A stretch of 64,000 bases of DNA from Isurus oxyrinchus (lineage: Eukaryota): positions 44,702,001 through 44,766,000 of the forward strand of contig JANJGN010000004.1 in the NCBI GenBank assembly GCA_026770705.1, given 5' to 3'. Below the pieces are notes generated by a model. It made no database searches. It saw only the letters and a list, made by a program, of their open reading frames with translations, and was not told the origin of the DNA. The stretch's first letter is position 1. Each line of letters opens with the position of its first letter. The position numbers and the translations under genes are program-made. Below are positions 7,336 through 64,000 of this stretch, piece after piece.

Positions 7336-7491
7336 ACGAAAATAAAAAAACTCAGTTATGTTGAAGAGTCATTAGGACTCGAAACGTTAACTGTGTTCCT
7401 CTCCGCAGATGCTACCAGATCTGCTGAGTTTTTCCAGGTATTTTTATTTTTGTTTTGGATTTCCAGCATCCACAGTTTTTTGCTTTTATCT
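7336..7491 (+). mobile_element. Penelope-like 3' terminal unit with hammerhead-like motif
   Basis: 14-bp TSD TAATGGAAGGCAGA (7322-7335, 7492-7505); homologous to the 3' end of 61819-62445. Confidence 0.85.
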
Positions 7492-25080: not shown

Positions 25081-25902
25081 CCACCATCATGTTTTTCCCC
25101 ACGCACCCCACCCCACCCCCGACCCCACCCCACCCCACCCCACCCCATCTTTTTTGTCCTTCCCTATCTTTCCTAATGTGAGTTTAAAGAAACTGAAAGG
25201 TCTATTTTGCAGAGTTGAGCACCCACAAAACATCTGAGAAATGTGTTCAGCTCTAATTGTCTAGGCCTGAATTGTACTGCTTCTGAAGTTTCTCTGTAAC
25301 TTCTCTGATGAATTTACCTGCTTGTGCCTGAAGAGGGCGCAGCAATGTAAATTATATGTAAATGAATATCAGATGCTGTGCGCACAGATATCCTGTCGTG
25401 GTACTTGGTGAAAATCAAGGCAGACTGCTCCATAAAAACCTGGTGCTATTGATCCCAAAACTACTGTATGGCTGCTGTCTGTCTTAAGGGACAGGCAAGT
25501 ATTGTCAAGAAAGGGCTTCTCAAAACTTCAAGCTGATGACAGAGGATTCTGAAAACTGCAACCATGGCTGCACTATCTTCCTTTCTTCCAGAATGCAACT
25601 TAACCTTGATTTCAGCAGTAACTTCTTTCCTGGGGCTTCTCCTGTGTCTGTCACTTTGGTGTTCCTACTGCGCATGATATTTTATCACTACAGCTGAGAG
25701 CTAGTGACAACGTACTCAACACAACTATAAATACAAGTTGTTAGACATATAGGTTTTGCCTTGGATATTCTATTGGATACAGCAGTGTTGGTCACTCTTC
25801 TAAGTGATCTATGTTTCTTATATTTACGGGTGTGTCCTTACTCCTCAATGTACAATCATATAATCACAGATATCAGGGGTACAACAATAGGAACATTTGT
25901 GA

Positions 25903-26138
25903 CAAAGCAAAAACAGAATTACCTGGAAAAACTCAGCAGGTCTGGCAGCATCGGCGGAGAAGAAAAGAATTGACGTTTCGAGTCCTCATGACCCTTCAAC
26001 AGAACTGAAGGGTCATGAGGACTTGAAACGTCAACTCTTTTCTTCTCCGCCGATGCTGCCAGACCTGCTGAGTTTTTCCAGGTAATTCTGTTTTTGTTTT
26101 GGATTTCCAGCATCCGCAGTTTTTTATTTTTATCTCTA
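25903..26138. mobile_element. Fold-back Penelope-like unit (two inverted 3' ends)
   Basis: Inverted arms 25908-25998 / 26006-26096; 14-bp TSD AGGAACATTTGTGA. Confidence 0.9.
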
Positions 26139-26341
26139 AGGAACATTTGTGATCTCAAATGGATATTGTGCCCTAGCACATCGCTCACATGGACTAATCC
26201 AATCTTTTTGAGGATAGATGAATAAACACTTGGTGAGACGTAGCCAGCGCTGAATCGTTATATCTTCCTTATTTGGCACAAGACAAATTAATGTAAAGAA
26301 TAATGGACGAAGCAATTTCCACTTCCCTCCTCAAAAATATG

Positions 26342-28074: not shown

Positions 28075-28565
28075 GAGCTCAATATAATCTCAAGGAACAG
28101 CACCTCACCTTTTGATTAGGCACTTTACAGCCTTCCAGACTGAGCATTGGTTCAACAATTTCAGACCATAATCTCTGCCACCATTTTGTTCCCTTTCTTT
28201 CCATGTTTTGATCTTACTCTTGTTTTTCTCTTGGTTTTGCTTTTGGATGGCAGTTGTCCATTTTTCTGCTATTCGCACCTCCTCTGGACCCACTTTTTGT
28301 TTCTTTACTTGTCTCATTACCACTCCTTGTGGCTCTGCCCCACCAATTCATTTGCTATTTAATGTCTCCTGTCTTCTGTCCTATCACAGTCCTTCCCTTT
28401 TGTTCTTTTCCACCATCCCCCACTTCATCTTCTTGAAACCTATTACGTTTCTAACTTCTCCCCATTCTGATGCAAAGTTAGTGGCCTGAAATCCTAACTC
28501 AGTTTCTGTCTCGACAGATGATACCTGACCTGTTGAGTATTTCCAGCATTTTCTGTGGTTATTTT
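28075..28565 (+). mobile_element. Older Penelope-like 3' fragment
   Basis: Degenerate KEQHLTF*LGTLQPSRLSI endonuclease end, pyrimidine-rich UTR, CTGATG...GAAA motif at ~28467-28498. Confidence 0.75.
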
Positions 28566-28844
28566 AGGTAAGGCTTTATGGCCTCCATTGCAATTACCAC
28601 TGACCCTTTGGCATAGAAAGATGCATGTTTTACTGCTGACAGGTTCTCAACAGCGCCATGTCTCTGAGCCATTCTGAGCAGTCAGAAAGTATCCTTGGCA
28701 CATATTCCTCCCATGTTCAGGAGCAGCATGCAGCCTCAGGCTCCTCAGCTGGAATGTCTGCTGGAGGTTGAATACCAAGAGGCCTGTCCTATGATTTGGT
28801 GTTGCAATCACCTTGCCAGAGCGAGTAAGGCCATTGAAACTTTT

Positions 28845-31800
28845 CTTTTTTTTAATTTATTCACGAGATGTGGGCCTTGCTGGCTGGGCCAGCATTTATT
28901 GCCGATCCCTAGTTGCCCTTGAGAAGTTGGTGGTGAGCTGCCTTCTCGAACTGCTGCAGTCCACATGGTGTAGGTACACCAACACTGCTGTTAGGAAGAG
29001 AATTCCAGGATTTTGACCAGCGACAGTGAATGATTGGTGACATATTTCCAAGTCAGGATAGTGAGTGACTTGAAGGGAAACTTCCAGGAGGGGTGTTCCC
29101 ATCTGCTGTCCTTGTCCTTCTAGGTGGTAGTGGTTGTGGGTTTGGAAGGTGCTGTCAAAGGAAGCTTGGTGAATTCCTGCAGTGCATCTTGTAGATGGTA
29201 CACACATTGCTGCTACTGTGCGTCTGTGGTGGAGGGAGTAAATGTTTGTGGATGTGGTGCCAGTCAAGCGGACTGTTCTGACCTGGATGGTATCAAGCTT
29301 CTTGAGTGTTGTGGGAGCTGCACTCATCCAGGCAAGTGGGGAGTATTCCATTACAGTCCTGAATTGTGCCTTGTAGATGATGGACAGGCTTTGGGAAGTC
29401 AGGAGATGGGTTACTTGTTGCGCAATTCCTAGCTTCTGACCTGCTCTTGTAGGCACAGTATTTACATGGCTAGTCCAGTTCAATTTCTGGTCAATGATAA
29501 CCCCCAGGATATTGATAGTGGGGGATTCAGTGATGATAATGCCATTGAACATCAAGGGGCGATGGTTAGATTTTCGTTTGTTGGAGATGGTCATTGCCTG
29601 ATACTTGTGTGGCACGAATGTTACTTGCCACTTGTCAGCCCAAGCCTGGATATTGTCCAGGTCTTGCTGCATTTGGACATGGGCTGCTTCAGTATCTGAG
29701 GAGTCACAAATGGTGCTGAACATCATGTTAACATCAGCGAACATCCCTGCTTCTGATCTTATGATGGAAGGAAGGTCATCGATGAAGCAGCTGAGGATCG
29801 TTGGGCTGCGACACTACCCTAAGGAATTCCTGCGGTGCTGGAGCTGAGGTGCCTGACCTCCAACAACCACAACTATCCTTCTTTGTACTAGGTATGACTC
29901 CAACCAGTGGAGAGTTTTCCCCCTGATTCCCATTGAGCCCAGTTTTTCTAGGGCTCCTTGATGTCACACTTGGCCAAATGCTGCCTTGGTGTCAAGGGCA
30001 GTCACTTTCACCTCACTTCGGAAGTTCAGCTCTTTTGTCCATGTTTGAACCAAGGCTGTAATGAGGTCAGGAGCTGAGTGGCCCTGGCGGAACCCAAACT
30101 GAGCATCAGTGAGCAGGCTAGTGCCAAGAAAGTGCTGCTTGATAGCACTGTTGATGACCCCTTCAATTACTTTGCTGATGATGGAAAGTAGTCTGATGGG
30201 GTTGTAATTGGCCGGGTTGGATTTGTCCTGCTTTTTGTGTACAGCAATTTTCCGCATGTCTAGGTAGATGCTAGTGTTGTAGCTGTATTAGAACAGCTTG
30301 GCTAGGGGTGCAGCAAGTTCTGGAGCACAAGTCTTTAGTACTATTGCCAGAATATTGTCAGGGTCCATAGCCTTTGCAGTATCCAGTGCCTTCAGCCATT
30401 TCTTGATATCACGTGGAGTGAATCAAATTGGCTGAAGACTGGCATCTGTGATGCTGGAGACCACGGAGGAGGCCGAGATGGATCATCCACTCGGCACTTC
30501 TGGCTGCAGATTGTAGCAAATGATTCAGCCTTATCTTTTGCACTGATGTGCTTCTCTTGCTGGGCTCCTCCATCATTGAGGATGGGGATATTTGTGGAGC
30601 CTCCCCCTCCAGTGAGTTGTTTAATTATCCAACACTATTCACGACTGGATGTGGCAGGACTGCAGATCCGTTGGTTGTGGGATCGCTTAGTCCTGTCTAT
30701 CACTTGCTGCTTATGCTATTTGGCACACAAGTAGCCCTGTGTTATAGCTTCACCAGGTTGACACCTCATGTTTAGGTATGCCTGGTGCATCCTCTTGCAC
30801 ACTTCATTGAACCAGGGTTGATCCCCTCACTTGATGGTAATGGTAGAGTGGGGGATCTGCTGCTGCTGATGGATGCCCAGTCTTGAGTTGCTAGATCTGT
30901 TTGAAATCTATCCCATTTAACACAGTGGTAGTGCCACACAATACAGTGGAGGGTATCCTCAACGCGAAGATGGGACTTTGTCACTCCTACTGATACTGTC
31001 ACGTACAGATGCATCTGCAGCAGGCAGGTTGGTGAGGATGAGGTCAAGTATGTTTTTCCCTCTTGTTGGTTCCCTCACAGACTCAGTCTGGCAGCTATGT
31101 CATTTGGGACTTGGCCAGTTCAATCAGTAGTGCTGCTATGGAGTTGTTCTTGGTGATGGACAGTGAAAACCCCACCCAGAGTACATTCTGCACCCTTGCA
31201 ACCCTCAGTGCTTCTCAACATGGAGGAGTACTGATTCAATAGCTGAGGGAGGGCAGTACATGGTAATCAGCAGGTGCTTTCCTTGCCCATGTTTGACCTG
31301 ATGTCATGAGACTTCATAGGGTCCAGAGTCAATGACCAGGCCAGCTCCCTCCCAACTGTGCGACCACCTCTGCTGGGTCTGTCCTGCTAGTAGGACAGAA
31401 CATACACAGCGATGGTGGTGCCTGGGACATTATCTGTAAGCTATGATTCCATGAGGATGATTATGTATGGCTATTGCCTGACTAGTCTGAGACAGCTCTG
31501 CCAATTTTGGCACAAGTCCCAAGGTGTTAGTAAGGAAGACTTTGCAGGGTCGACAGGGCTGAGATTGCTGTTGTCGTTTCTGGTGCCTAGGTCAATGCCG
31601 ACTGGTCCGCCTGATTTTGTTCCTTTTTTGTGACTTTGTAGCTGGCTATGCCAATTAAGAGCCAATTACATTGCTGTGGTCTGGAGTCATGTGTAGGACA
31701 TTAGTGAACCAGGTGGGTTTTTACAACAATCGACAATGGTTTCATGGTCATCGTCAGACTTTTATTTACAGATTTTTATTGAATTCAAATTCTACCATCT

Positions 31801-31889
31801 GCCATGGTGGGATTCAAACCCAGGTCCCCAGAGGATCACCCTGGGTCTCTGGAATACTAGTCCAGTGACAATACCACTACGCCATCGCC
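28845..31889 (-). mobile_element. Near full-length CR1/L2-clade LINE with tRNA-like 5' head
   Basis: APE-like start at ~31530, NPANYNPIRLLSIISK, QFGFRQGHSAPDL, ALDTKAAF, FAD, YKAQFRTVMEYSPLAW; A-rich 3' end at ~28845. Confidence 0.85.
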
Positions 31890-33937: not shown

Positions 33938-34840
33938 TAAAAACGTACATTCCAACCAACTCCTCGTTGTAACCTTGCACTGCCGAACACAAAGATAAAC
34001 ATAATGAAGAAGCCCCACCAGTGCTGTTTAAAGGGATCATGAAGCACTGAGGGGTGATTTCTGGATTATTTCTTCTGGCTTTGGAGCTTTTCAATATTTG
34101 ACTGAAGTTTGAAAACTCTACAGGGAGTGGTGTGGCTGGTCTTGAAGTGCTTGGCATATAAATCATTGCGCTGAAAGAACTTAATTGCACACGTGGACGG
34201 CCAGGTAAGGCTTCCTCCAAGAATTGAACATGATCAGGAGAATGAAAAGAGGCCTCACAGAACAGATCAAGCTGCTAAAAGAGGGAGTGCATGGGGAAGG
34301 ATTAGAGGAGGAAGTGGAAGAAAGAAAGAGGATGAGGAACAGAGTTTACAATGAAGACAGCCCATTTCTGCCCAGGCTCCCGATGATCAGATTATTCATA
34401 AGCAGTGACAATAACCATACCTACACCTCCCCATTCAACAAGAATTCCATACAACTACCCTCTCCTCTATAACTGACCATCCTATCATCCTTCTTCTGAT
34501 AACATAAAAATAAAAACCATCAGGAAATGCAAATTCAAACCCCATTTGACTTGTTCAGCAATTCATTCAAAAAGAAATCAAGCATCCTTTAGTGCTTGCC
34601 TTCCTTATGTCTTTAGTTTTCATTGGGCTCCTATGAAGTGCTTTCCCAGTGTCTGCAGCATTGATGGTGGAAGGCTGCTGACTTTCAGTTGAGGGGACTG
34701 CAGATGATCTTGAGCAGCCCTGGGCATTTTTATTTTTCCACCTATTTCCATTATTTTTAATGTATTCCACCGATCATTTATCTATACCTTTTACGCCCTT
34801 TTAGTCTTATTTCACCCCACTCCCACTAGAGCTATCTGTA

Positions 34841-34975
34841 ACTCTTTCAAGTACAAACCTGTTTCCATCTGTTTCAGATGAAGTTACATTGTTTCATAGT
34901 TTGCCATTGAGATTTGAACTCCTGATCTTGGGGTTACAAACCCAGTACCATAACCACTTGGCTATTTAGGCCAAG
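34841..34975 (-). mobile_element. Short tRNA-derived SINE (135 bp)
   Basis: A box TAGCCAAGTGG, anticodon-like loop TTTGTAA, B box GAGTTCAAATC; 15-bp TSD CTAGAGCTATCTGTA. Confidence 0.85.
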
Positions 34976-35211
34976 CTAGAGCTATCTGTACCTTGCTTGT
35001 CCTGCTATCCATTCTTAATTAGCACATTCTTTTAGATAATATCACCACCTTCAACACCTCTTTGTTCTTTTGTCTGCGACATCTTTTGGTTATCTCCTCC
35101 TATCACTGCTTGTTTGTCCCAACAACCACCTCCCCCTTCTCTCTCCCCCCACCCCCCTGCTCCCCCCCCCCCCAAACCAGCTTATATTTCACCCCTCTCC
35201 TATTTTTACTT

Positions 35212-35250
35212 AGTTCTGTTGAAGGGTCATGAGGACTCGAAACATCAACT
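35212..35250 (+). ncRNA. Minimal type I hammerhead ribozyme-like motif (variant core)
   Basis: AGTT-CTGTTGA-A-GGGTC-ATGAG-GACTC-GAAA-CATC-AACT; homologues at 7353-7393, 25967-26007(-), 41270-41304 and 62309-62347. Confidence 0.6.
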
Positions 35251-37624
35251 GTACTCTTCTCCACCGATGCTGCCAGACCTGCTGAGTTTTTCCAGGTATT
35301 TTTCATTTTTTGTTTTGGATTTCCAGCATCCGCAGTTTTTTGTTTTTATATCTGGGCATAGAGGGCCTGGTTTCAGACAGCACCACCTTGGCCTGGACTG
35401 CAGCAGTTTTGTCTGGACTGTATGACAGGCAACAGCAAAGGAACAGACAGAATGACAGAGTTAGGAACAGAAATGCTGTCACCCTGAGTTCCTTTTTCAT
35501 GGAGCCACTGCCACTCTCCTGGAGCTGAGCCTCAGCAATCCTGAAGGGCTGTTGGAGAACAAATTCCTGGACTGCTGTTCTGTCCTGGAAGCCCTTTTGA
35601 ACAAGGGAAACCAAAGCCATGATGGCAGACATCTGAGTTTGCAACACAGAAGTCTAAGATTCCAATGCAGCCTTCACACCTCTGATGGAAGATGTTAGTT
35701 CTGCAATGGAAGCGATGACATTGGCATCATATGTTGCATCATGGTTGGCTGAACAGATGTGCAGATGGAGCTGAGAATCTATTCCAAATTAGAAAGGATG
35801 GGCCCCAAGCTTTATGCAAAGCCCTGTGCCAAGCTTGTGCTGGAATTCTTTATGCTCCTTGACATTGAGCACAGATTTTCGAGTTTGCCAAGCATTTGGT
35901 TTTGTATGCTCATCAGCTTTCTTCTGTAGCCTGGCCCATCAAAGTCCTCATCTGAGCGGAGCATATATGCAGCCTCTCCCACTGATGAGCTGGCACTTCC
36001 GACAGCCTTTCCCCCCAATCCTGCCTCCTACGCACTTGCACCAAGTGTCTCACGTGATGCAGACTCCTCCTGTTTTCTAGCCCCTAAAACATATGCAGTG
36101 TTAGTATCTGAGCTGGTTGCTGCAAGTGTAAGATTTAATGATGGTAAATCTTCATCTTCACTATCTTTTTCCTCATACATAAGAACATAAGAACACAAGA
36201 TATAGGAACAGGAGTGGTTCCCTTGAGCCTGCTCCTTCATTCGATATGATCATGGCTGATCCTATTGTGGCTTTAATTCCACTTTCCTGCCTGCCCCCCA
36301 AAACATCTGACTCCCTCACAGATCAAAAGCCATAAATCTTCCTCAGATGCCTGAGAAGATTCCAGTTCTTGAGTTTCTGAAATGGAGACAAGGGTTGAGC
36401 TGTGGTCACTGGGCAGGCGAAAGTAAGAAGGACATGTTTACACCATGTCCAGCTGTGACTCAAAGGGATGAGGAAGAAATAGGAAGAGAAGGGTGATTAG
36501 ATATGTGGACACCCTCATCATCAATTAATTCAGTGCTGCCAATAGACAATGTCTCAGTGATGCCCCTTCCCATGATGGCCAGCATTGTCTCCTCAATGGG
36601 AATTTAAAGGTGCAGGCACATCTGTTCTCCTTCAGTTATTTCATGCTGCCATCTGTGATGCCCCAACCTCTCCTGCAAGAAAGAAGGAAGTGTGCTAGTG
36701 AGTGGTTGGTTGATGTGGCTGTCATGGTTACATAGTTGACAGTGTGTTTGAACTCTGAGTTATGGGGGCAAGGCTTGAAAGTGTGTGAGGGTGAGGTAAA
36801 GCATATAAACTGAAGGCTTGAGTACTGATTGCTAGAGGTTGTTGGTTAGTGAGTGATGGTATTGTAATGAATTGAGTAGTGGCTGGGGCTTGTGGTGTAG
36901 TGGCCAAATACGCCATTTGAAGATTGAACTCATTCACTTCAGTGGCATGTATTAAATCATTAAACTTTTTCCTGAACTGCATCCATGTTCTTGGAGCCAA
37001 ACTCCTGAAATTGACCTCCACCAATGCTCCTTCCCACTGCCTCCTGAGCATATGACTGGACAGCCACCTGACCCCTTATGTTCATAGGATGGCTTGCCTC
37101 GAGTGCATTGCCAGAAAAGCTTGGTGCACACTTGTTTGCCGGTTCAACCATCTTAACAAAAACCCTTCAACTCAATTAACTTCCTGACACCTCCTCCAGC
37201 AACCTCCTGTTTAAGAAGTGTAGGCTACCTTTTATTAGTGCTAGATATTTGTAATATTGGGCCAATGAATGACTTGGGATGTATTAGCAGCATGCAGCAA
37301 TCATTTAAAAACCAGTTGGCAGTACAAGTTTAACACACAGCCTGCAACGCAACAAGCAGACACAGGTTAATTGTAAACTGTGACATGCATGCTTGTTCTC
37401 GGCTCTTACCCAATTTAACCCCCAAAGATTTAAGATCATCACTGAAAGGATGAAGAGCATATTATGGCACATTTTTTACATAGATGGTTGTTAGGATATG
37501 GAATACCCTATCAGGAACAGTGGCAGAAGCAGAGGCGCATTGGGCCGCATAGCTAGTGAGATGCCCAACATTCTAAGTGTGACTTAACTAATGAGTTGTA
37601 CAGGCTTAGCATTGCTTCTTGCTT

Positions 37625-41136: not shown

Positions 41137-41361
41137 AAAAACAAGAAAACTGCGGATGCTGGATATCCAAAACAAAAACAGAATTACCTGGAAAAACTCA
41201 GCAGGTCTGGCAGCATCGGCGGAGAAGAAAAGAGTTGACATTTCGAGTCCTCATAACCCTTCGACAGAACTGTCGAAGGGTCATGAGGACTCGAAACGTC
41301 AACTCTTTTCTTCTCCGCCGATGCTGCCAGACCTGCTGAGTTTTTCCAGGTAATTCTGTTT
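41137..41361. mobile_element. Fold-back Penelope-like unit
   Basis: Inverted arms ~41173-41267 / 41270-41364 with a 2-nt spacer; 15-bp TSD TTGCTAGAAATTGTT. Confidence 0.9.
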
Positions 41362-49778: not shown

Positions 49779-49951
49779 ATAAAAGCAAAAAACTGCGGAT
49801 GCTGGAAATCCAAAACAAAAACAAAAGTACCTGGAAAAACTCAGCAGGTCTGGCAGCATCTGCGGAGAGGAAGGTTATCTTTTCGAGTCCGTATGGCTCT
49901 TCTACAACTGTGCTCCTCTCCACAGGTGCTGCCAGACCTGCTGAGTTTTTG
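49779..49951. mobile_element. Fold-back Penelope-like unit, diverged subfamily
   Basis: Minus copy joined at AACTG (49906-49910) to a short plus copy; 15-bp TSD CAAGCTTCAACTCAG. Confidence 0.85.
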
Positions 49952-57199: not shown

Positions 57200-57495
57200 T
57201 GTGGTAATCTGAGGTGCAATACACCTTTACAAGAATGTGAGCAGATTGACTACATGATTGTATTAGCCGATTGCTGTGTAGCACAGACTACATTTTTAAT
57301 CACTGGTTTGGAATGGGTTCTGGTTCAAGAAGCACGAATGTGTTCATGCTCTGTTGTTTATATGAATAAAAAGCATGTGTTTCACCTAACAATGGTCTCT
57401 TCATCCACATCGTTTAGTTTACTGGCCAACACCTCAGTAGATAGGTGTGCAACCATTTTCACAGAGCAGGGCAAACTCTTAATAACAACACAACA
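57200..57495 (+). repeat. 5' LTR
   Basis: TGTGGTAATC...CAACA; AATAAA at ~57365; direct repeat of the 3' LTR. Confidence 0.88.
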
Positions 57496-57613
57496 ACTGG
57501 CGATGAGGCAAACCGCAACCAGTCAACGATGCCACGGCAAGCTGCTGAAAGTAAACTGAAGCAAATCAGCCATACTTTCCAGGTGCTGGTAAGTGCTGCC
57601 TTCATTGTAGCCA

Positions 57614-58410
57614 TTGGAGTTATCTTCCTACAGTGTGCCACAGTTTGGCCATGTTGAACCTTTTGATCAGACTATCGATGACTGGTCACATTACAGTGAA
57701 TGCTTTGCATTCCTCTTTATGGCATGCGACATATCGGGGGAGGAGAAGAGGCCGGTGATCCTCTTATTGACATGGGGCAGTAAAACTTGCGGTCTAATTC
57801 GTAGTCTAATGAGACCCAACACCCCAGATTCCAAGAGCTTTGATGAGTTGGTAAACCTAGTGAATAGCTGCTTTCAGCCGAAATCCTTGGTAACGATGCA
57901 GCGTTTTAAATTTAATTTGAGGTGTAGCGCCCCTGGAGAGACTGAAGCTTGCTATGTAGCAGACTTAAAACAATTAACAGAACATTGTGAATTTGGGATG
58001 TTGATTAATGACATGTTAAGAGGCCGGTTAGTATGTGGGATTAAAGAAGAAGCCAATCAAAAAAGGCTGTCGTCAGAAACTAATTTGGATTCCAGCAATG
58101 TGCTGGAGTTGGCTCTCGCAATGGAGATTGCAGTCAGGGATTCAGCAGCAGTTAAGGGAGCAGAAAATGGTTCCATCTTTCAGGTCAGGAGGGAAGCCTT
58201 GGTTAGAAATGGCGTGGAAGTGCACAGCTCCGTGGAAAGGCGGGAAACAGCCATCACCAACAGACCAGTGAAAAGCAATGGCTCAACAGACAAAACCTAT
58301 AACAGTAAGAGCAGAAATGGAACCAGATAGCCTACAAACTAATAACAATTTAAAACAATTGAATGTTTCATCTGCCATCATAAAGGACACATTATGAGAC
58401 ATTGCAAATT
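57614..58410 (+). pseudogene. Gypsy gag
   Basis: Open 238-codon stretch (QRFKFNLR..LKQLTEHCEFG..LRGRLVCGI) followed by CFICHHKGHIMRHC zinc knuckle. Confidence 0.85.
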
Positions 58411-58499
58411 GAGACAAACCTTCGGACAAAAAAGTAGAAATCATGACATTCACATAATTGAGGAACCAGAAGAAACAGAGCCAGATATTTACTCACTAT

Positions 58500-61400
58500 A
58501 CAATTTAAAAATGGACAAAACAGAGCCAATCCATGTGGTACCCATGACAGTCAAAGGAGAACATAGGTTCAAATATCTAAATGGAGAAGACCACCCATTA
58601 AATCTGGAAAATTCAGAAACTAAATTAAAGATGTATACTGGAGAAGACACATGAGTAAGTGGTATTTGCAAGGTTCTGGTACAGTATGGAAATCAGTCCA
58701 TTAATCTACCACTAATAGTGGTAGCAGGAGAGGGTCCAAGTCTATTTGGTCGGAACTGGCTTACGGAAAGTTGGAATGGACCGAGATTTTTCAACTCAGA
58801 ATGAAAGGTCTGTAAGAATTACTACAGGAATATGCCTCTGTTTTTAAGGAGGAGCTTGGAAAGATGCAGGGGCTACAAACTAAAAACTACGTGGATCCTG
58901 AGGCAATTCCCAAATTCATGAAGGTGAGGCCTGTACCCTTTGCATTGCGAGAAAAAGTTGATATTGAATTGGACAGGCTGGAAAGGTTGGGAGTCATACA
59001 ATCTGTACAATTTTCTGAATGAGCAGCACCCATTGTTCTAGTACTAAAGTCTGGCCAGAGTGTGCGAATATACATGGATTACAAGTTGACAGTTAACAAG
59101 GTGGCCAGACTAGACAGACATCCTATACCGAACATTGATGAATTATATTCCAAGTTGGCATGTGGAACTGCATATATGAGCTCAACATGAGCCATGCTTA
59201 CCAATAAGTTGAACTGGAAGAGACCTCTTGGGACTTGTTGACTATCATCACGCATAGGGGTTTATGCCAATATACCCGGTTACCCTTCAGAGTCTCATCA
59301 GCATATGCCATTTTCCAACAGACCATGGAAAGTTTAATCCAAGGGTTGCACCATGTTGTGGTTTATCTCGATGATGTCCTAGCACTAACAGATGAAGGAC
59401 ACCTGGCTATCCTGGAAGAGATGTTGAAGCATTTCTCACAAGCCCGAGAAAAATTTACCTTCCAAGCAAAAGAAGTGGTGTACTGGGGCCATTATGTCTA
59501 CTCGCTGGGCCTTCACTCATTAGAAAAGAAGATCAGAGCTATCCGTGAGGCGCCAGCACTGAAAAACGTCAGAGTTCAAGTCCTTCTGGGGAATGGTTAA
59601 CTATTATGGCCGTTTTCTCCAAATTTGTCAACAGTACTGGCTCCATTATATTGGCTCATAGAATCACAGAATCACAGAATCACACAGTGCAGAAGAGGCC
59701 CTTCAGCCCATCGAGTCTGCACCGACACATGAGAAACACCTGACCTACCTACCGAATCCCTCAAGAAAATCCACAGGTGGGTTTGGCAAGCTCCACAACA
59801 AGAGGCTTTTACAATAGTAAAGCAGTTACTCCACTCTTCTGCTCTGTTGGTACATTTCGACCCCAAGAAAGAATTAATTTTGACCTGTGATGCGTCACCT
59901 TACGAAGTAGGGGGGGGGGCAGCACTCTCCCACCGGATGGCAGATGGCTCTGAACCGCCCATCGGCTATGTCTCATGAACACTCACCGTGGCTGAGCAAA
60001 GATACTTGCAAATCAAAAAAGAAAGATTCTCCATCATATTTGGTGATAAGAGGTTCCACCAATACATCCATGATTGCCACTTTACCATTGTATCTGACCA
60101 CAAGCCCCTACTAGGCTTGTTTGGCAAAGACAAGGCAGTGCCCCCAATTGCCTCTGCACTCATCCAAAGGTAGGCACTAATTCTAGCTGCTTATGAATAT
60201 ACTTATGTCCTCCGGCCGGGCAGCCAGATTGCAAATGCCGATGCACTGAGTTGATTACCGCTAAAAAACAGCAGCGTGAATGTCCCAATTCCCCAAGGAC
60301 TTGTCTTGCTATTGAATTTTCTGGATTCGTCACCTGTACATGCCAATCAAATAAGACAGTGGCCAGACTGCAATCCAGTTTTGTCTCACATAAGGGAACA
60401 AGTCTTACAGGGATGGTCTAACGAGCCAAAGTCTGACGAAATGAAGCCCTATTTCAATAGGCGATATGAGCTCACCTGCCAGGATGGCATCTTGCCGTGC
60501 GGAGCGAGAGTCATTGTGCCTTTGAGAAGAAGAAAGCCATTATTGACCGAATTGCATAGTGTTCACACCGGCATCTCTAGAATGAAAATGTTGGTGTGCA
60601 GCTACTTATGGTGACCCGGGATGGATACAGAAATCAAGAACTTAGTCAAAAGCTGCATACAGTGCCAACAGGTACAGAAATTGCCCCCTTCAGCTCCATT
60701 ACATCACTAGGAAGACATGGGTCCGTCTATATATTGACTACTTTGAGCCTTTTTTGGGCACAATGTCCCTCCTGATCATAGACACTTACTCAAAGTGGAT
60801 GGATGTATACAAAATAAAATCACCCACATCTGCTGCCACCATAGATAGATTACGCCAGAGTTTTGAGGTACATGGGTTACCGGAAATGATAGTGTCTGAC
60901 AATGGAATAGCATTCACCAGCGAGGAATTACAAAGATTTGCAAGTCTCAATGGCATAACACATGTTCAGACCTCGCCTTACCACATCCAATGGGTTGGCC
61001 AAGAGGCTAGTCCAAACTTTCAAGTCCTGAATGGAAAAACTTGATGGTGACACTATTACATCTAGATTTTCATGCTTCCTATTGAACTATAGGACTGTGC
61101 CACACACGACTGCCGGTATTGCCCCCGCAGAGTTACTTCTGGAGAGATGTCTCCGGACATGTTTGAGTCTCATAAGGCCGAATTTAGGGGAGAGGGTAGA
61201 GAGAAGTCAGGAGGCCCAGAAAAACAAGCACGATTATCACAGTTGTGAAAGAAACTTAACTATTAGAGACTGTTTTTGCCAAGAACTTCGGAGATGGGCC
61301 CAAAAGGCTATTAGATGAAGTTAGAGCAGTGACAAGACCTCTTTCCTATCACATATTGGTTGAAGGTCAGATAATTAGGGGACATGTGGATCACCTTAGA
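58500..61400 (+). pseudogene. Gypsy pol (protease active site missing; RT, RNase H, integrase), disrupted
   Basis: GLCQYTRLPF, VVYLDDVL, LTCDASPY, SDHKPLLGLF, LHSVHTG, IDTYSKW, IVSDNGIAF, TSPYH. Confidence 0.9.
59657..59760 (-). mobile_element. CR1-type (LINE or SINE) 3' tail inserted in Gypsy pol
   Basis: Minus strand GATGGGCTGAAGGGCCTCTTCTGCACTG plus (TGATTCTG)n repeats. Confidence 0.8.
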
Positions 61401-61738
61401 TAAAGGGAAACAGATCTACAAGAGAGGATGCACCAAACATTCCTGTTGGAGTCTACACTACGTGTGGAAGGAACTCCTTTCAGTTTGAGAGTACCTATAG
61501 GATCTGTTGTGCCTGAGATGGTCGGAAAAACAAACTTACAGATTCCTATGGGAGAGCCTAATGGAAAGATGACTCCTGAGAGGGAGGCCACGGACAAACC
61601 ATCAGAAGGCGTAGAACTACAACATTCGACACTTGTGAAGAAGCCTCCAGAGAGACTGAATTTGTAAATAGTCTATTTATGTAAATAGTTAATATTTCTA
61701 AAGATTGTAATTTGTACCTTCGAGTAAAGGGGGAGGGA

Positions 61739-62648
61739 TGTGGTAATCTGCATACCTTTAAGAGGATGTGAGCAGATCGACCACATGACTGTATTACCCA
61801 ATTGCTGTATAGTACGAGCTACATTGTTCCAGTGAAGCTCAACACAAACTGGAGGAACAGCACCTCATCTTCCGACTAGGTACTTTACAGCCTTCCGGAC
61901 TGAATATTGAGTTCAACAACTTTAAATCATGAACTCTCTCCTCCGTACCAACCCACTTTCCGATCCCCCTTTTTCCAATCATTTATGTATATATTTTTTT
62001 CCCACCTATTTCCATTATTTTTAAATGTATTTCCAGCCATAGTTTTTTCTCTACCTTTTAGCCTATGTCGATCCCTTCCCCCCACCTCACCCCCACTAGG
62101 GCTGTCTGTCCCTTGCTCATCCTGCTTTCTACCCTTATGTCCCCATTAGCACATTTCTTAGCTAATATCACCACCGTCAACACCTCTTTGTCCTTTTGTC
62201 TATGACATCTTTTGGCAATCTCCACCTATCACTGGCCCTCTATCCAGCTCTACATGTCCCACCCTCCCTTAAACCAGCTTATATTTCACCTCTTTTCTAT
62301 TTTTCTTTAGTTCTGCTGAAGAGTCACATGGACTCAAAACGTTAACTGTATTCCTCTCTGCAGATGCTGTCAGACCTGCTGAATTTTTCCAGGTATTTTT
62401 GTTTTTGTTCCAGATTTCCAGCATCCGCAGTATTTTGCTTTTATTTTGTTAATCAGTAGTTTAGAATGGGTTCTGGTTCAAGAAGCATGCATGTGTTTGT
62501 GCCCTGTTGTTTATATGAAGAAACAGCATGTGTTTCACCTCACAAAAGTTTTTTCGTCCACATTGTTTAGTTTACCAAACAACACCTCAGTAGATAGGCG
62601 TGCAGCCATGTTTGCCAAGCAGAGTGAATTCTTCGTAACAACATAACA
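61739..62648 (+). repeat. 3' LTR, split by a Penelope insertion
   Basis: 61739-61828 and 62451-62648 together match 57200-57495 with many substitutions. Confidence 0.88.
61819..62445 (+). mobile_element. Penelope-like element 3' fragment (GIY-YIG endonuclease C-terminus, UTR, hammerhead-like motif)
   Basis: LHCSSEAQHKLEEQHLIFRLGTLQPSGLNIEFNNFKS* at 61819-61932; same 3' terminus as the short units. Confidence 0.9.
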
Positions 62649-64000
62649 ATTCAGGACATGAAATTTGAACTCTGATCTGACTGGAACTCAGTGGGCAGTC
62701 CATACCGGGTAAAGAATTGTTTTAATTCCCCTCCCAATATTTTGGTAGATATGGTTCTCAGGGGAACTGCCTCTGGGAAATGTGTAGCTACACCCAGGAT
62801 GGTAAGGATGTACTGGTAGTCCCCTTTTATTTTGGACAGGGGCCTCACACAGTCCACTAGCACCTTGCTGAATCGTTCCCCAAAAACTGACATGGGAATC
62901 ACAGGTGCAGATTTTATTGCAAGTTGGGGTTTTCCCACAACCTGGCAGATGTGGCAGGTTCTGTAAAACCTTATTAGATCCTTCTGGAGGTCTGCTGAGT
63001 GAAAACTCTTTGATGGGAGCTTGGGTTTTTCATATACCAACATGCCCAGCTATTGGAATTTTGTGTGCTAGCTGTAATCATTTCCCACAGTATCTTGGCA
63101 GTACCACTACTTGTTGGATCACTGTCCACTCTTCATTTGCAGGTCTGTGAGGGGGTCTCCACTTCCTCATCAGTACCTCAGATTTAAGGCAGCAGCATTT
63201 AGGGACTGTCTGCCTCAGCTTCAGTGTGTGCAATCTGAGCTAACTTTTTTAACAACGGGCTAGCTTGCTGAGCTGCAACAAAGGAAAGCCTACTTATTAC
63301 CTCCTTAGGGTCCTTTACACTCCTGAAAAATGTCTCAGATGACCTGTCAGTAGGGTCATCTGTCTGCAGTGCCACTTCAACCTCCTATGACTATGGACCA
63401 GGTTACTACACAGTTAGGGAAAATGTCAGACACTTTCTGCTCAATTGATTTGGCTCCCTGACCGCAGTCATCTTCTCTGAGACTACTGTGGATGATATCA
63501 CTTTTGATCCTGCCAGGTCTGGCTGAGGGGTGGCCCTGTCCACAGGCAAACTGGGGCGACTCCGATGGTCACCGGTCCTGACACAAGGTTGCACTCCAGG
63601 TACACCCAGCATAAGGGCTGGGCATGTACCCTCCTTCAATACTCATTACCAATGCCTTGGCCCTTACTGCACTCTCTGGTTGAAAGGCCATGCCTTTAGT
63701 TTGGCTGGCCCCTGTATCCCTCAGTATCACTATAGGCACACCTGCCTCATTCTGGGGAAATGTGGCCACCCTTCCTTTTGATACAAAATCCTTGTAACTC
63801 TCAGGGGTTTTTTTTAAGCTCACCCACACTCACAGTAGTGCGTCTACAGGGGTTTGCTGCCAGTCAGCCATAGTCTGGTCTGCTGTGCTCTCTGCCTCCA
63901 GTTTCTGCGCCAGGTTCATATGCCCCAACAAATCCTATGGGTTTTTCCTGTAACCTTCAACAATCAGCACGGAGGTGTCTCACCTTGCGGCAGTTAAAAC

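Follow-up and report, generated by a model that had tools for sequence, protein, structure and literature searches.

Fold-back mini-units of a Penelope-like element in Isurus oxyrinchus share a 5' limit beside a hammerhead-like motif

Inverted 5'-truncated copies and a tail of 30-40 nt are standard features of Penelope-like elements (PLEs) in the accessible portions of the literature (PMC8557442, PMC8969392), and palindromic head-to-head seams have been described as well and ascribed to self-priming in the part of that study consulted here (PMC3846280). A minimal hammerhead has furthermore been described for metazoan PLEs (available text of PMC4209133), and the first-pass annotation of the DNA analysed below, which took inverted 5'-truncated segments and minimal type I hammerheads to be established PLE properties, is on this point in agreement with the cited sections (PMC8557442, PMC4209133). 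[quoted passage not shown] Non-LTR retrozymes, as presented in the available parts of the sources, consist of repeats arranged head to tail, carry two or more hammerheads and give a circular RNA (PMC7229834; bioRxiv 10.64898/2026.07.22.740005). The way in which the inverted ends of PLEs arise and the role of the hammerhead are, in the same portions of the literature, open questions in the field (PMC8557442, PMC11167929). The layout with an inverted arm, a 30-40 nt tail and a palindromic seam is already known for PLEs, to which the present analysis makes a modest, testable addition in the form of a common 5' limit and a rule for the seams.

The window, a stretch of 64,000 nt from Isurus oxyrinchus (assembly GCA_026770705.1, contig JANJGN010000004.1, positions 44,702,001 to 44,766,000), holds six copies of one PLE family, among them four short insertions of 156 bp (7336-7491), 236 bp (25903-26138, the focal unit), 225 bp (41137-41361) and 173 bp (49779-49951), which are named below by their first positions. 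The annotation had described four short insertions, each with its own TSD of 14-15 bp, and the positions it gave are correct; the TSDs are exact over 14 bp in the 7336 unit (7322-7335/7492-7505) and the focal unit (Table 1) and over 15 bp in the 41137 (41122-41136/41362-41376) and 49779 (49764-49778/49952-49966) units, the chance of a single such match being roughly 1e-5. The 7336 unit sits in a LINE RT fragment and interrupts the LINE reading frame, with the same four TSD codons flanking it on both sides, and the host repeat of the 41137 unit has a paralogue that is without the unit and carries a single diverged copy of the TSD. Searches for paralogous flanks of the 25903 and 49779 sites found none, and the second LINE copy to which the 7336 site was aligned is without the left flank. 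We can conclude that the four insertions are confirmed as real.

Table 1. Coordinates of the family copies, unit parts and motifs, numbered along the whole window; signed positions refer to the element scheme given in the text.
Feature	Position	Strand	Basis
7336 unit, inverted copy (17 nt) of the outermost 3' end; 7350-7352 common with the long arm	7336..7352	-	
7336 unit, long arm reaching from -4 up to the 3' end; hammerhead-like motif complete, two core letters changed	7350..7491	+	
Focal unit, left TSD, 14 bp	25889..25902	+	TSD comparison
Focal unit, short inverted arm, element -2 to ~+104; helix I 5' strand and core kept; without tail	25903..26008	-	
Focal unit, seam: 7-nt unpaired centre (of the short arm), then three letters common to both arms (26006-26008)	25999..26008		
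Focal unit, long arm from +9, within the hammerhead core, to the common 3' end	26006..26138	+	
Focal unit, one-sided tail, 37 nt, PLE tail signature	26102..26138	+	Arm end 26101; definition in the available text of PMC8557442, PMC11167929
Focal unit, right TSD, 14 bp	26139..26152	+	
Longer direct copy of the same family, reference; TSD 8 bp (34720-34727/35352-35359)	34728..35351	+	
TATA-like sequence at -29, pyrimidine tract, initiator-like/3' splice-site-like AG at the helix I 5' strand	35183..35218	+	
Hammerhead-like motif of minimal type I, with 5 bp each in helices I and II, a palindromic helix III and the core CUGUUGA	35211..35251	+	Available text of PMC4209133
41137 unit, long arm from -1 to the 3' end; tail 36-39 nt	41137..41272	-	
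41137 unit, short arm from +5; three letters shared (41270-41272); 2-nt centre	41270..41361	+	
49779 unit, long arm, beginning at +6/+7 and running up to the 3' end; sequence near helix III and the helix I 3' strand degenerate	49779..49906	-	
49779 unit, short arm, +36 to ~+80	49906..49951	+	
Last 39 codons (C-terminus) of an ORF of GIY-YIG endonuclease type; 3' UTR/pLTR next	61813..61929	+	
Longest of the six copies, comprising ORF end, UTR, hammerhead-like motif (62308-62348) and common 3' end	~61818..62446	+	

The units derive from a Penelope-like element, as had been proposed from the letters alone, and from an endonuclease-bearing (EN+) one: the units are inverted and truncated, tails are present, and a GIY-YIG C-terminus lies upstream of the end repeat in the longest copy. 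This copy (61818-62446) and the reference copy (34728-35351) reach about 490 and 330 nt further upstream than the short units and are not folded back; no TSD was found for the former, the start of which is approximate. Its peptide resembles the C-terminal ends of proteins from eukaryotes, with 9 matches among 15 candidates at a best E of 1.3e-8 and 42 hits in a further search, and Pfam reports GIY-YIG in three of the nine matching proteins, one of them above cut-off; the 39-residue peptide itself has no Pfam hit, and its longest protein relatives are chimeric gene models. Indeed the public models P0014, P0017, P0018 and P0021 show the PLE C-terminal peptide fused to a 7TM receptor, ATP synthase c or a LINE RT, and these are likely mis-predicted exons. 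Within the window there is no RT-bearing copy of the family, and none of the six copies has a direct pLTR formed by partial tandem. An older relative at 28430-28566, about 73-80% like the main family, has a different tail and no detectable TSD. The family is abundant, with 56,939 public contigs in run X1 (about 65% of the run covered) and 62,927 in run X6, a second species (about 48% covered), and since loose ends pile up behind 35349 (518 contigs in X1 and 323 in X6) the 3' end of the element is fixed. Family contigs also occur in runs X18 and X20, which are guessed to be RNA and whose contigs come without strand, start or level. A pattern scan for further copies gave no metagenome contigs, no viral contigs and one unrelated bacterial match, and Rfam run over the units returned only hairpin-type matches below gathering score besides one tRNA hit.

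Other repeats adjoin or interrupt these copies. The reference copy contains a nested insertion of 135 bp (34841-34975) with a 15-bp TSD of its own (34826-34840/34976-34990), and the tRNA hit (minus strand, 34902-34971) falls inside it, so that it is likely a tRNA-derived SINE piece; a single tRNA-Thr-like sequence was furthermore reported by ARAGORN at 31800-31888 on the minus strand. The 61818 copy lies among decayed LTR-retrotransposon-like coding pieces at 57611-63049, which are gag-, RT- and integrase-like by eye, and the sequence 57293-57496 is repeated at 62446-62649.

Element positions are counted from the A of AGTT in the reference copy (+1 = 35212), in which the 5' strand of helix I occupies -1 to +4, the core +5 to +11 and the 3' strand of helix I +36 to +40, with the predicted cut between +35 and +36, that is between 35246 and 35247. 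Alignment of the arms bears out the description of each unit as the last ~140 nt of a PLE joined to an inverted copy of part of that end. The opposed arms are 97% complementary in the focal unit (25903-25998/26006-26101, with 3 mismatches in 96) and 98% in the 41137 unit (41173-41267/41270-41364, 2 in 92), and they differ by 4 of 43 letters plus gaps in the 49779 unit; arm identity does not, however, separate one template from two. A transcript of the 236-nt focal unit is predicted to form a single long hairpin (z = -29). All long arms end at +136 to +142, and the short arms end 37 nt earlier in the focal unit, 36-39 nt earlier in the 41137 unit, about 56 nt earlier in the 49779 unit and at the very end in the 7336 unit; two units accordingly have tails of 37 and 36-39 nt, one a tail of 56 nt and one no tail.

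The seams follow a rule in three of the four units, where one arm keeps the outermost letters of the limit and its final three letters recur at the start of the partner arm. Position -4 is kept by the long arm of the 7336 unit (17-nt partner from +121), -2 by the short arm of the focal unit (long arm from +9) and -1 by the long arm of the 41137 unit (short arm from +5). The seam of the 49779 unit shares just 1-2 letters or, alternatively, uses helix I pairing with a loss of 2 nt, and its short arm begins with the helix I 3' strand at the first base past the predicted cleavage site. The motifs singled out by the annotation, CAGTT at 7353 and AACTG at 49906, are found there, the second arm of the latter unit starting at +36 directly 3' of the predicted cleavage triplet as claimed. 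CAGAACTG is likewise present at both ~26000 and ~41265, but it belongs to the short arm at the former and to the long arm at the latter, and the two seams are not the same. The idea that all four junctions lie at helix I can be kept in a looser form only, as the 3' strand is involved in the 49779 unit and the 5' strand or the start of the core in the others. The four seams are all different, and the diagnostic columns +14 and +35 define two subfamilies, in each of which a long copy is accompanied by a pair of short units: one consists of 34728 with 25903 and 41137, the other of 61818 with 7336 and 49779. Because the seams differ and two subfamilies are represented, the four units do not stem from one fold-back master; identical junctions from a single such master, the alternative that had been put forward, are thereby rejected for these four units, and repeated formation is what the seams bear out.

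The motif beside the seams has the layout of a minimal type I hammerhead with helices I and II and a minimal palindromic helix III, and in five copies 53 of 54 cells of helices I and II pair (98%) as opposed to 20-44% when the strands are slid against each other. Four helix pairs vary on one side and none of the five copies has a two-sided compensatory change, the shuffle control being uninformative at n=5. The core reads CUGUYGA or CUGCUGA and not CUGANGA, position 6 being U or C in all six copies or arms listed, and at the corresponding position 35219 no other letter reaches 15% in public contigs of the same species (run X3) or of a relative (run X14); the older relative (at 28463) keeps A6. 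A natural A6C variant was cleaved at less than 0.1 per min according to the available text of PMC3088659. Rfam has no hammerhead hit at E up to 1, and compared to shuffles the motif folds with z of -0.28 and -0.45 in the two long copies and reaches -3.75 only in the 7336 copy.

The main finding concerns where the copies begin. Four of the six start at -4 to +9 with respect to the helix I 5' strand, i.e. within 14 nt, a cluster width picked after inspection of the data, for which simulation gives P = 0.005, 6e-4, 1e-4 and 0/400,000 if starts are uniform over 300, 600, 1000 and 3000 nt, and P = 0.021, 0.003 and 4e-4 if they are exponential with means of 100, 200 and 400. This limit lies about 35 nt upstream of the cleavage site and recurs in both subfamilies. 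When public contigs were aligned to 35174-35293, the summed depth in X3 climbed from 2.79M (35206-35209) over 5.93M, 11.26M and 13.58M to 16.31M (35222-35225), a 5.8x rise, and that in X14 from 4.28M to 8.65M over the same interval (2.0x), the steepest steps falling at 35210-35217 in both; in coarser bins the rise is 3.9x in X1 and 5.8x in X6, contig depth being distinct from copy number. Among the 12 of 272 loose-end rows listed, those before 35212 comprise 83 (X3) and 79 (X14) contigs with a consensus that differs from the upstream element sequence; reference mismatches at 35208 and 35211 bias the clipping towards 35212. In the other listed rows with loose ends before a position (35255, 35257 and 35258) the letters resemble the element, and these rows are due to the divergence of subfamilies. 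Part of the depth step could come from the reference mismatches and from related families that differ in their upstream sequence. Nonetheless the earlier suggestion that 5' truncation clusters at the hammerhead region gains support from the window copies and from the contigs of two species, and the cluster probably extends over the whole genome, resolved to about -4 to +1. In the openly accessible literature consulted, we saw nothing that describes a clustering of 5' ends at helix I.

The clipped letters before 35212 contain, in both X3 and X14, a direct-orientation copy of the nine letters 35233-35241 (the helix II 3' strand plus GAA), which lies 5-13 nt upstream of the limit with an agreement of only 0.42-0.45. 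It could represent a head-to-tail join to the 5' cleavage piece or a shared master junction, and its spacing fits neither exactly.

The sequence leading up to the limit was read against the TATA and initiator consensus. A TATA-like 4-mer at -29, noticed post hoc and matching the TATA box in 6 of 8 positions, precedes a pyrimidine tract, an AG and an initiator-like sequence at +1 in the reference copy, and the same spacing is found at 62280-62315 in the other long copy. A scan for sigma-70 promoters found nothing, that consensus being irrelevant to the host. A splice-donor-like site about 84 nt past +1 (35290-35300) and an acceptor-like site at +2 (35195-35213) flank the hammerhead; close to them lie the joints of some contigs, which contain additional letters and of which none is exact. 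A TATA-Inr pair has been proposed for rotifer pLTRs in the portion of PMC3846280 at hand, and in Drosophila virilis transcription is described to start 46 nt before a 75-nt intron (PMC2377424, in part), the end of which maps to the 5' end of helix I (PMC4209133, likewise in part).

Our preferred reading, which we hold tentatively and give slightly less than an even chance, is that reverse transcription starts internally and runs off at a fixed RNA 5' end, and that two cDNAs from the cut target ends are joined via about three bases. We infer that the limit is the 5' end of an RNA and the start point of a promoter, and that the arms come from two cDNAs. The transcript would thus begin just before helix I, its fixed 5' end being a likely transcription start, and the RT would start inside this RNA at two sites bounding the tail, about 100 and 140 nt downstream, to give run-off cDNAs of the observed size. 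These would likely be primed from both cut target ends, one each, and would anneal at their 3' ends, where a 3-nt microhomology likely joins them. The ribozyme would in this scheme mark the place, helix I serving as one of several joining patches, and would neither cut nor stall. The clustered starts, the depth step and loose ends at the limit, its presence in both subfamilies and the TATA-like sequence in both long copies count in favour of the scheme. In addition, -4, -2 or -1 is kept by one arm in three units, the partner setting in at a recurrence of that arm's final trinucleotide (+121, +9, +5), and the outer ends, with two short arms ending 36-39 nt before the long ones, fit the two RT start sites in the available PAc text (PMC11167929). 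Snap-back of a tail-primed first cDNA is excluded for the focal unit because the unpaired centre belongs to the tail-less arm, and such a centre may be obtained either from two cDNAs annealing at their 3' ends or from a hairpin trimmed at both outer ends. Against the scheme it should be mentioned that the kept ends at -1 to -4 lie slightly upstream of the initiator A, that the homologous feature may be a splice acceptor, which the sequence fits equally well, that the 49779 seam needs a 2-nt loss or shares only 1-2 letters, that its short arm ends at ~+80 and so at neither tail boundary, and that the ends are U-rich here whereas PAc starts reverse transcription in AC-rich sequence. A wider claim, namely that internal initiation inevitably yields short PLE stubs as a by-product, the RT starting about 140 nt from each transcript's 5' end and a dimeric enzyme priming at both target ends and producing two run-offs, is in our view possible but less likely than not.

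The motif could be given a more active part. If the RT copies through the hammerhead and the cDNA end then folds back on its helix I partner or a mini-palindrome, the fold of a longer RNA would set the breakpoint; in agreement with this the 49779 seam joins both strands of helix I, an opposite-strand joint 35213/35249 occurs in one contig each of X3 and X14 (one of the eight joints listed), 35249-35250 is linked to 35212-35216 in 4 of the 12 rows listed of 27 (the kind of link is not given), and helices I and II are kept. However, an RT moves 3' to 5' on its template and meets helix I at about +40 first, and if it stalled it should do so on reaching the helix from the 3' side (~+41), not past its 5' edge. 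At the 5' side of the motif the RT has passed all of it, and a stall would not be expected to give this limit. As the fold is furthermore weak in both long copies, three of the four seams are without helix I pairing and two-sided compensation is absent from the five copies, we consider this reading unlikely: helix I complementarity shapes one seam class and does not explain the limit. The proposal that the ribozyme fold sets the breakpoint through RT stalling or template switching is not supported, the limit being on the far 5' side and a single seam using helix I pairing. Rather improbable, too, is a single hairpin formed beforehand by self-priming of antisense RNA or free cDNA, the outer ends of which the endonuclease trims at the tail boundary before integration. 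The notion stems from the self-priming proposed for palindromic head-to-head PLE junctions (PMC3846280, in part) and from the ascription of the tail to endonuclease resolution (PMC8557442, in part), and such an intermediate explains a loop on either arm as well as the C at +9 that both arms of the 41137 unit share. It still requires a fixed end at -4 to +1, the arms of the 49779 unit disagree, and in the available text on PAc nicked target DNA serves the PLE protein as primer in vitro and the RT start sites coincide with the tail (PMC11167929).

Inheritance of the limit from a non-autonomous master of ~140 nt (SINE/MITE-like or retrozyme-like), or from a ready-made fold-back unit that spreads, has in its favour the abundance of the family, in which short forms may outnumber long ones. 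The seams and the short-arm ends nevertheless differ in all four units, short units occur in two subfamilies that each have a long member in the window, the motif as well as the region where the RT starts would be concealed in a perfect hairpin, and head-to-tail arrays are absent from the window; we regard this as quite improbable, and a SINE/MITE-like single-master family was rejected on the four different seams and two subfamilies, with n = 4 only. The retrozyme- or SINE-like unit of the first-pass annotation fares no better, since the units are inverted and single and show no hammerhead-bounded head-to-tail repeats. Self-cleavage, which would supply a short template with 5' ends marking the cut, seems very unlikely. 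The 49779 short arm does start exactly at +36, and the helix II copy in the loose ends of X3 and X14 might be a join to the 5' cleavage piece with inexact spacing. Yet the starting point is a different one in seven of the eight arms, six arms retain letters lying 5' of the cut, no loose-end row falls at 35247 among the matches listed (12 of 272), the X3 depth past the variable stretch is 13.1M and not above the 16.3M of the core, and A6 is U or C in the copies or arms listed. Furthermore, insertion by cleavage-dead PAc mutants was normal and the cleavage site coincided with no read end, as far as the available text goes (PMC11167929). A self-cleaved short RNA as the source of the breakpoint, also suggested before, is not supported, given the single arm at the cleavage site and the changed A6. 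Least to be expected is that the limit reflects splicing at a 3' site, in which case the core would be preceded by the acceptor of a conserved PLE intron, made up of the pyrimidine tract and the AG, and processing would free a short RNA. Both long copies have the tract and the AG, and the D. virilis intron ends at the helix I 5' end (PMC4209133, in part), but cleavage past the AG would start the RNA at +3 while three units keep -1 to -4, the upstream exon is seen at no seam, and an exact donor-to-acceptor joint is absent among the eight joints listed.

With a very abundant family in which the 5' limit is common and numerous seams arose independently, the questions about inverted ends and the hammerhead become testable by genome counting and by the in vitro assay already established. 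The preferred run-off reading would explain short hammerhead-headed repeats without a new class of parasite, and its value is mechanistic and for the specialist. If the by-product claim were true as well, the seams would record how Penelope inverted repeats are made, the genome would amount to a very large natural map of transcription start and two-ended priming, and the helix of a catalytically decayed hammerhead would be a joining patch only.

Compared to the insertion units of EN+ PLEs, as far as described in the accessible text (PMC8557442, PMC3846280, PMC2377424), the units have in common the 5' truncation, the head-to-head arm, the one-sided tail of 30-40 nt and the TSD, to which the hammerhead motif in the end repeat and the GIY-YIG ORF end upstream in the longer copy may be added. 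They differ in consisting of the last ~140 nt only, with a common 5' limit at helix I, and their TSDs of 14-15 bp exceed the 8-10 bp seen in the rotifer PLEs of the same portions of text. With PAc they share two classes of 3' end downstream of the hammerhead, and in that system both target strands were extended in vitro and cleavage was dispensable; the U-rich ends and the A6-changed core set the present family apart, and the available PAc text is without a fixed 5' limit (PMC11167929). The metazoan PLE hammerheads, in the part of the description consulted, likewise have a helix I of 4-5 bp, an extra base before helix II, a G10.1-C11.1 pair and a palindromic minimal helix III (PMC4209133), whereas the motif predicted here has the core CUGUYGA/CUGCUGA in place of CUGANGA and a helix II of 5 bp. 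Non-LTR retrozymes, in the accessible accounts, are also non-coding, related to PLE ends, equipped with a type I hammerhead motif and flanked by TSDs of more than 4 bp. The units differ from them in being inverted, in having ends that are not at cleavage sites and in carrying no two consecutive intact hammerheads, and retrozyme identity was rejected as all four are inverted and single, with neither head-to-tail repeats nor consecutive hammerheads. LINE-1 twin priming, finally, places an inverted segment inside one TSD with a microhomology seam, and its two segments do not overlap. The inverted segment within one TSD and the microhomology seam are common to both cases, but the arms described here overlap and repeat the same sequence, which rules out twin priming of the L1 type.
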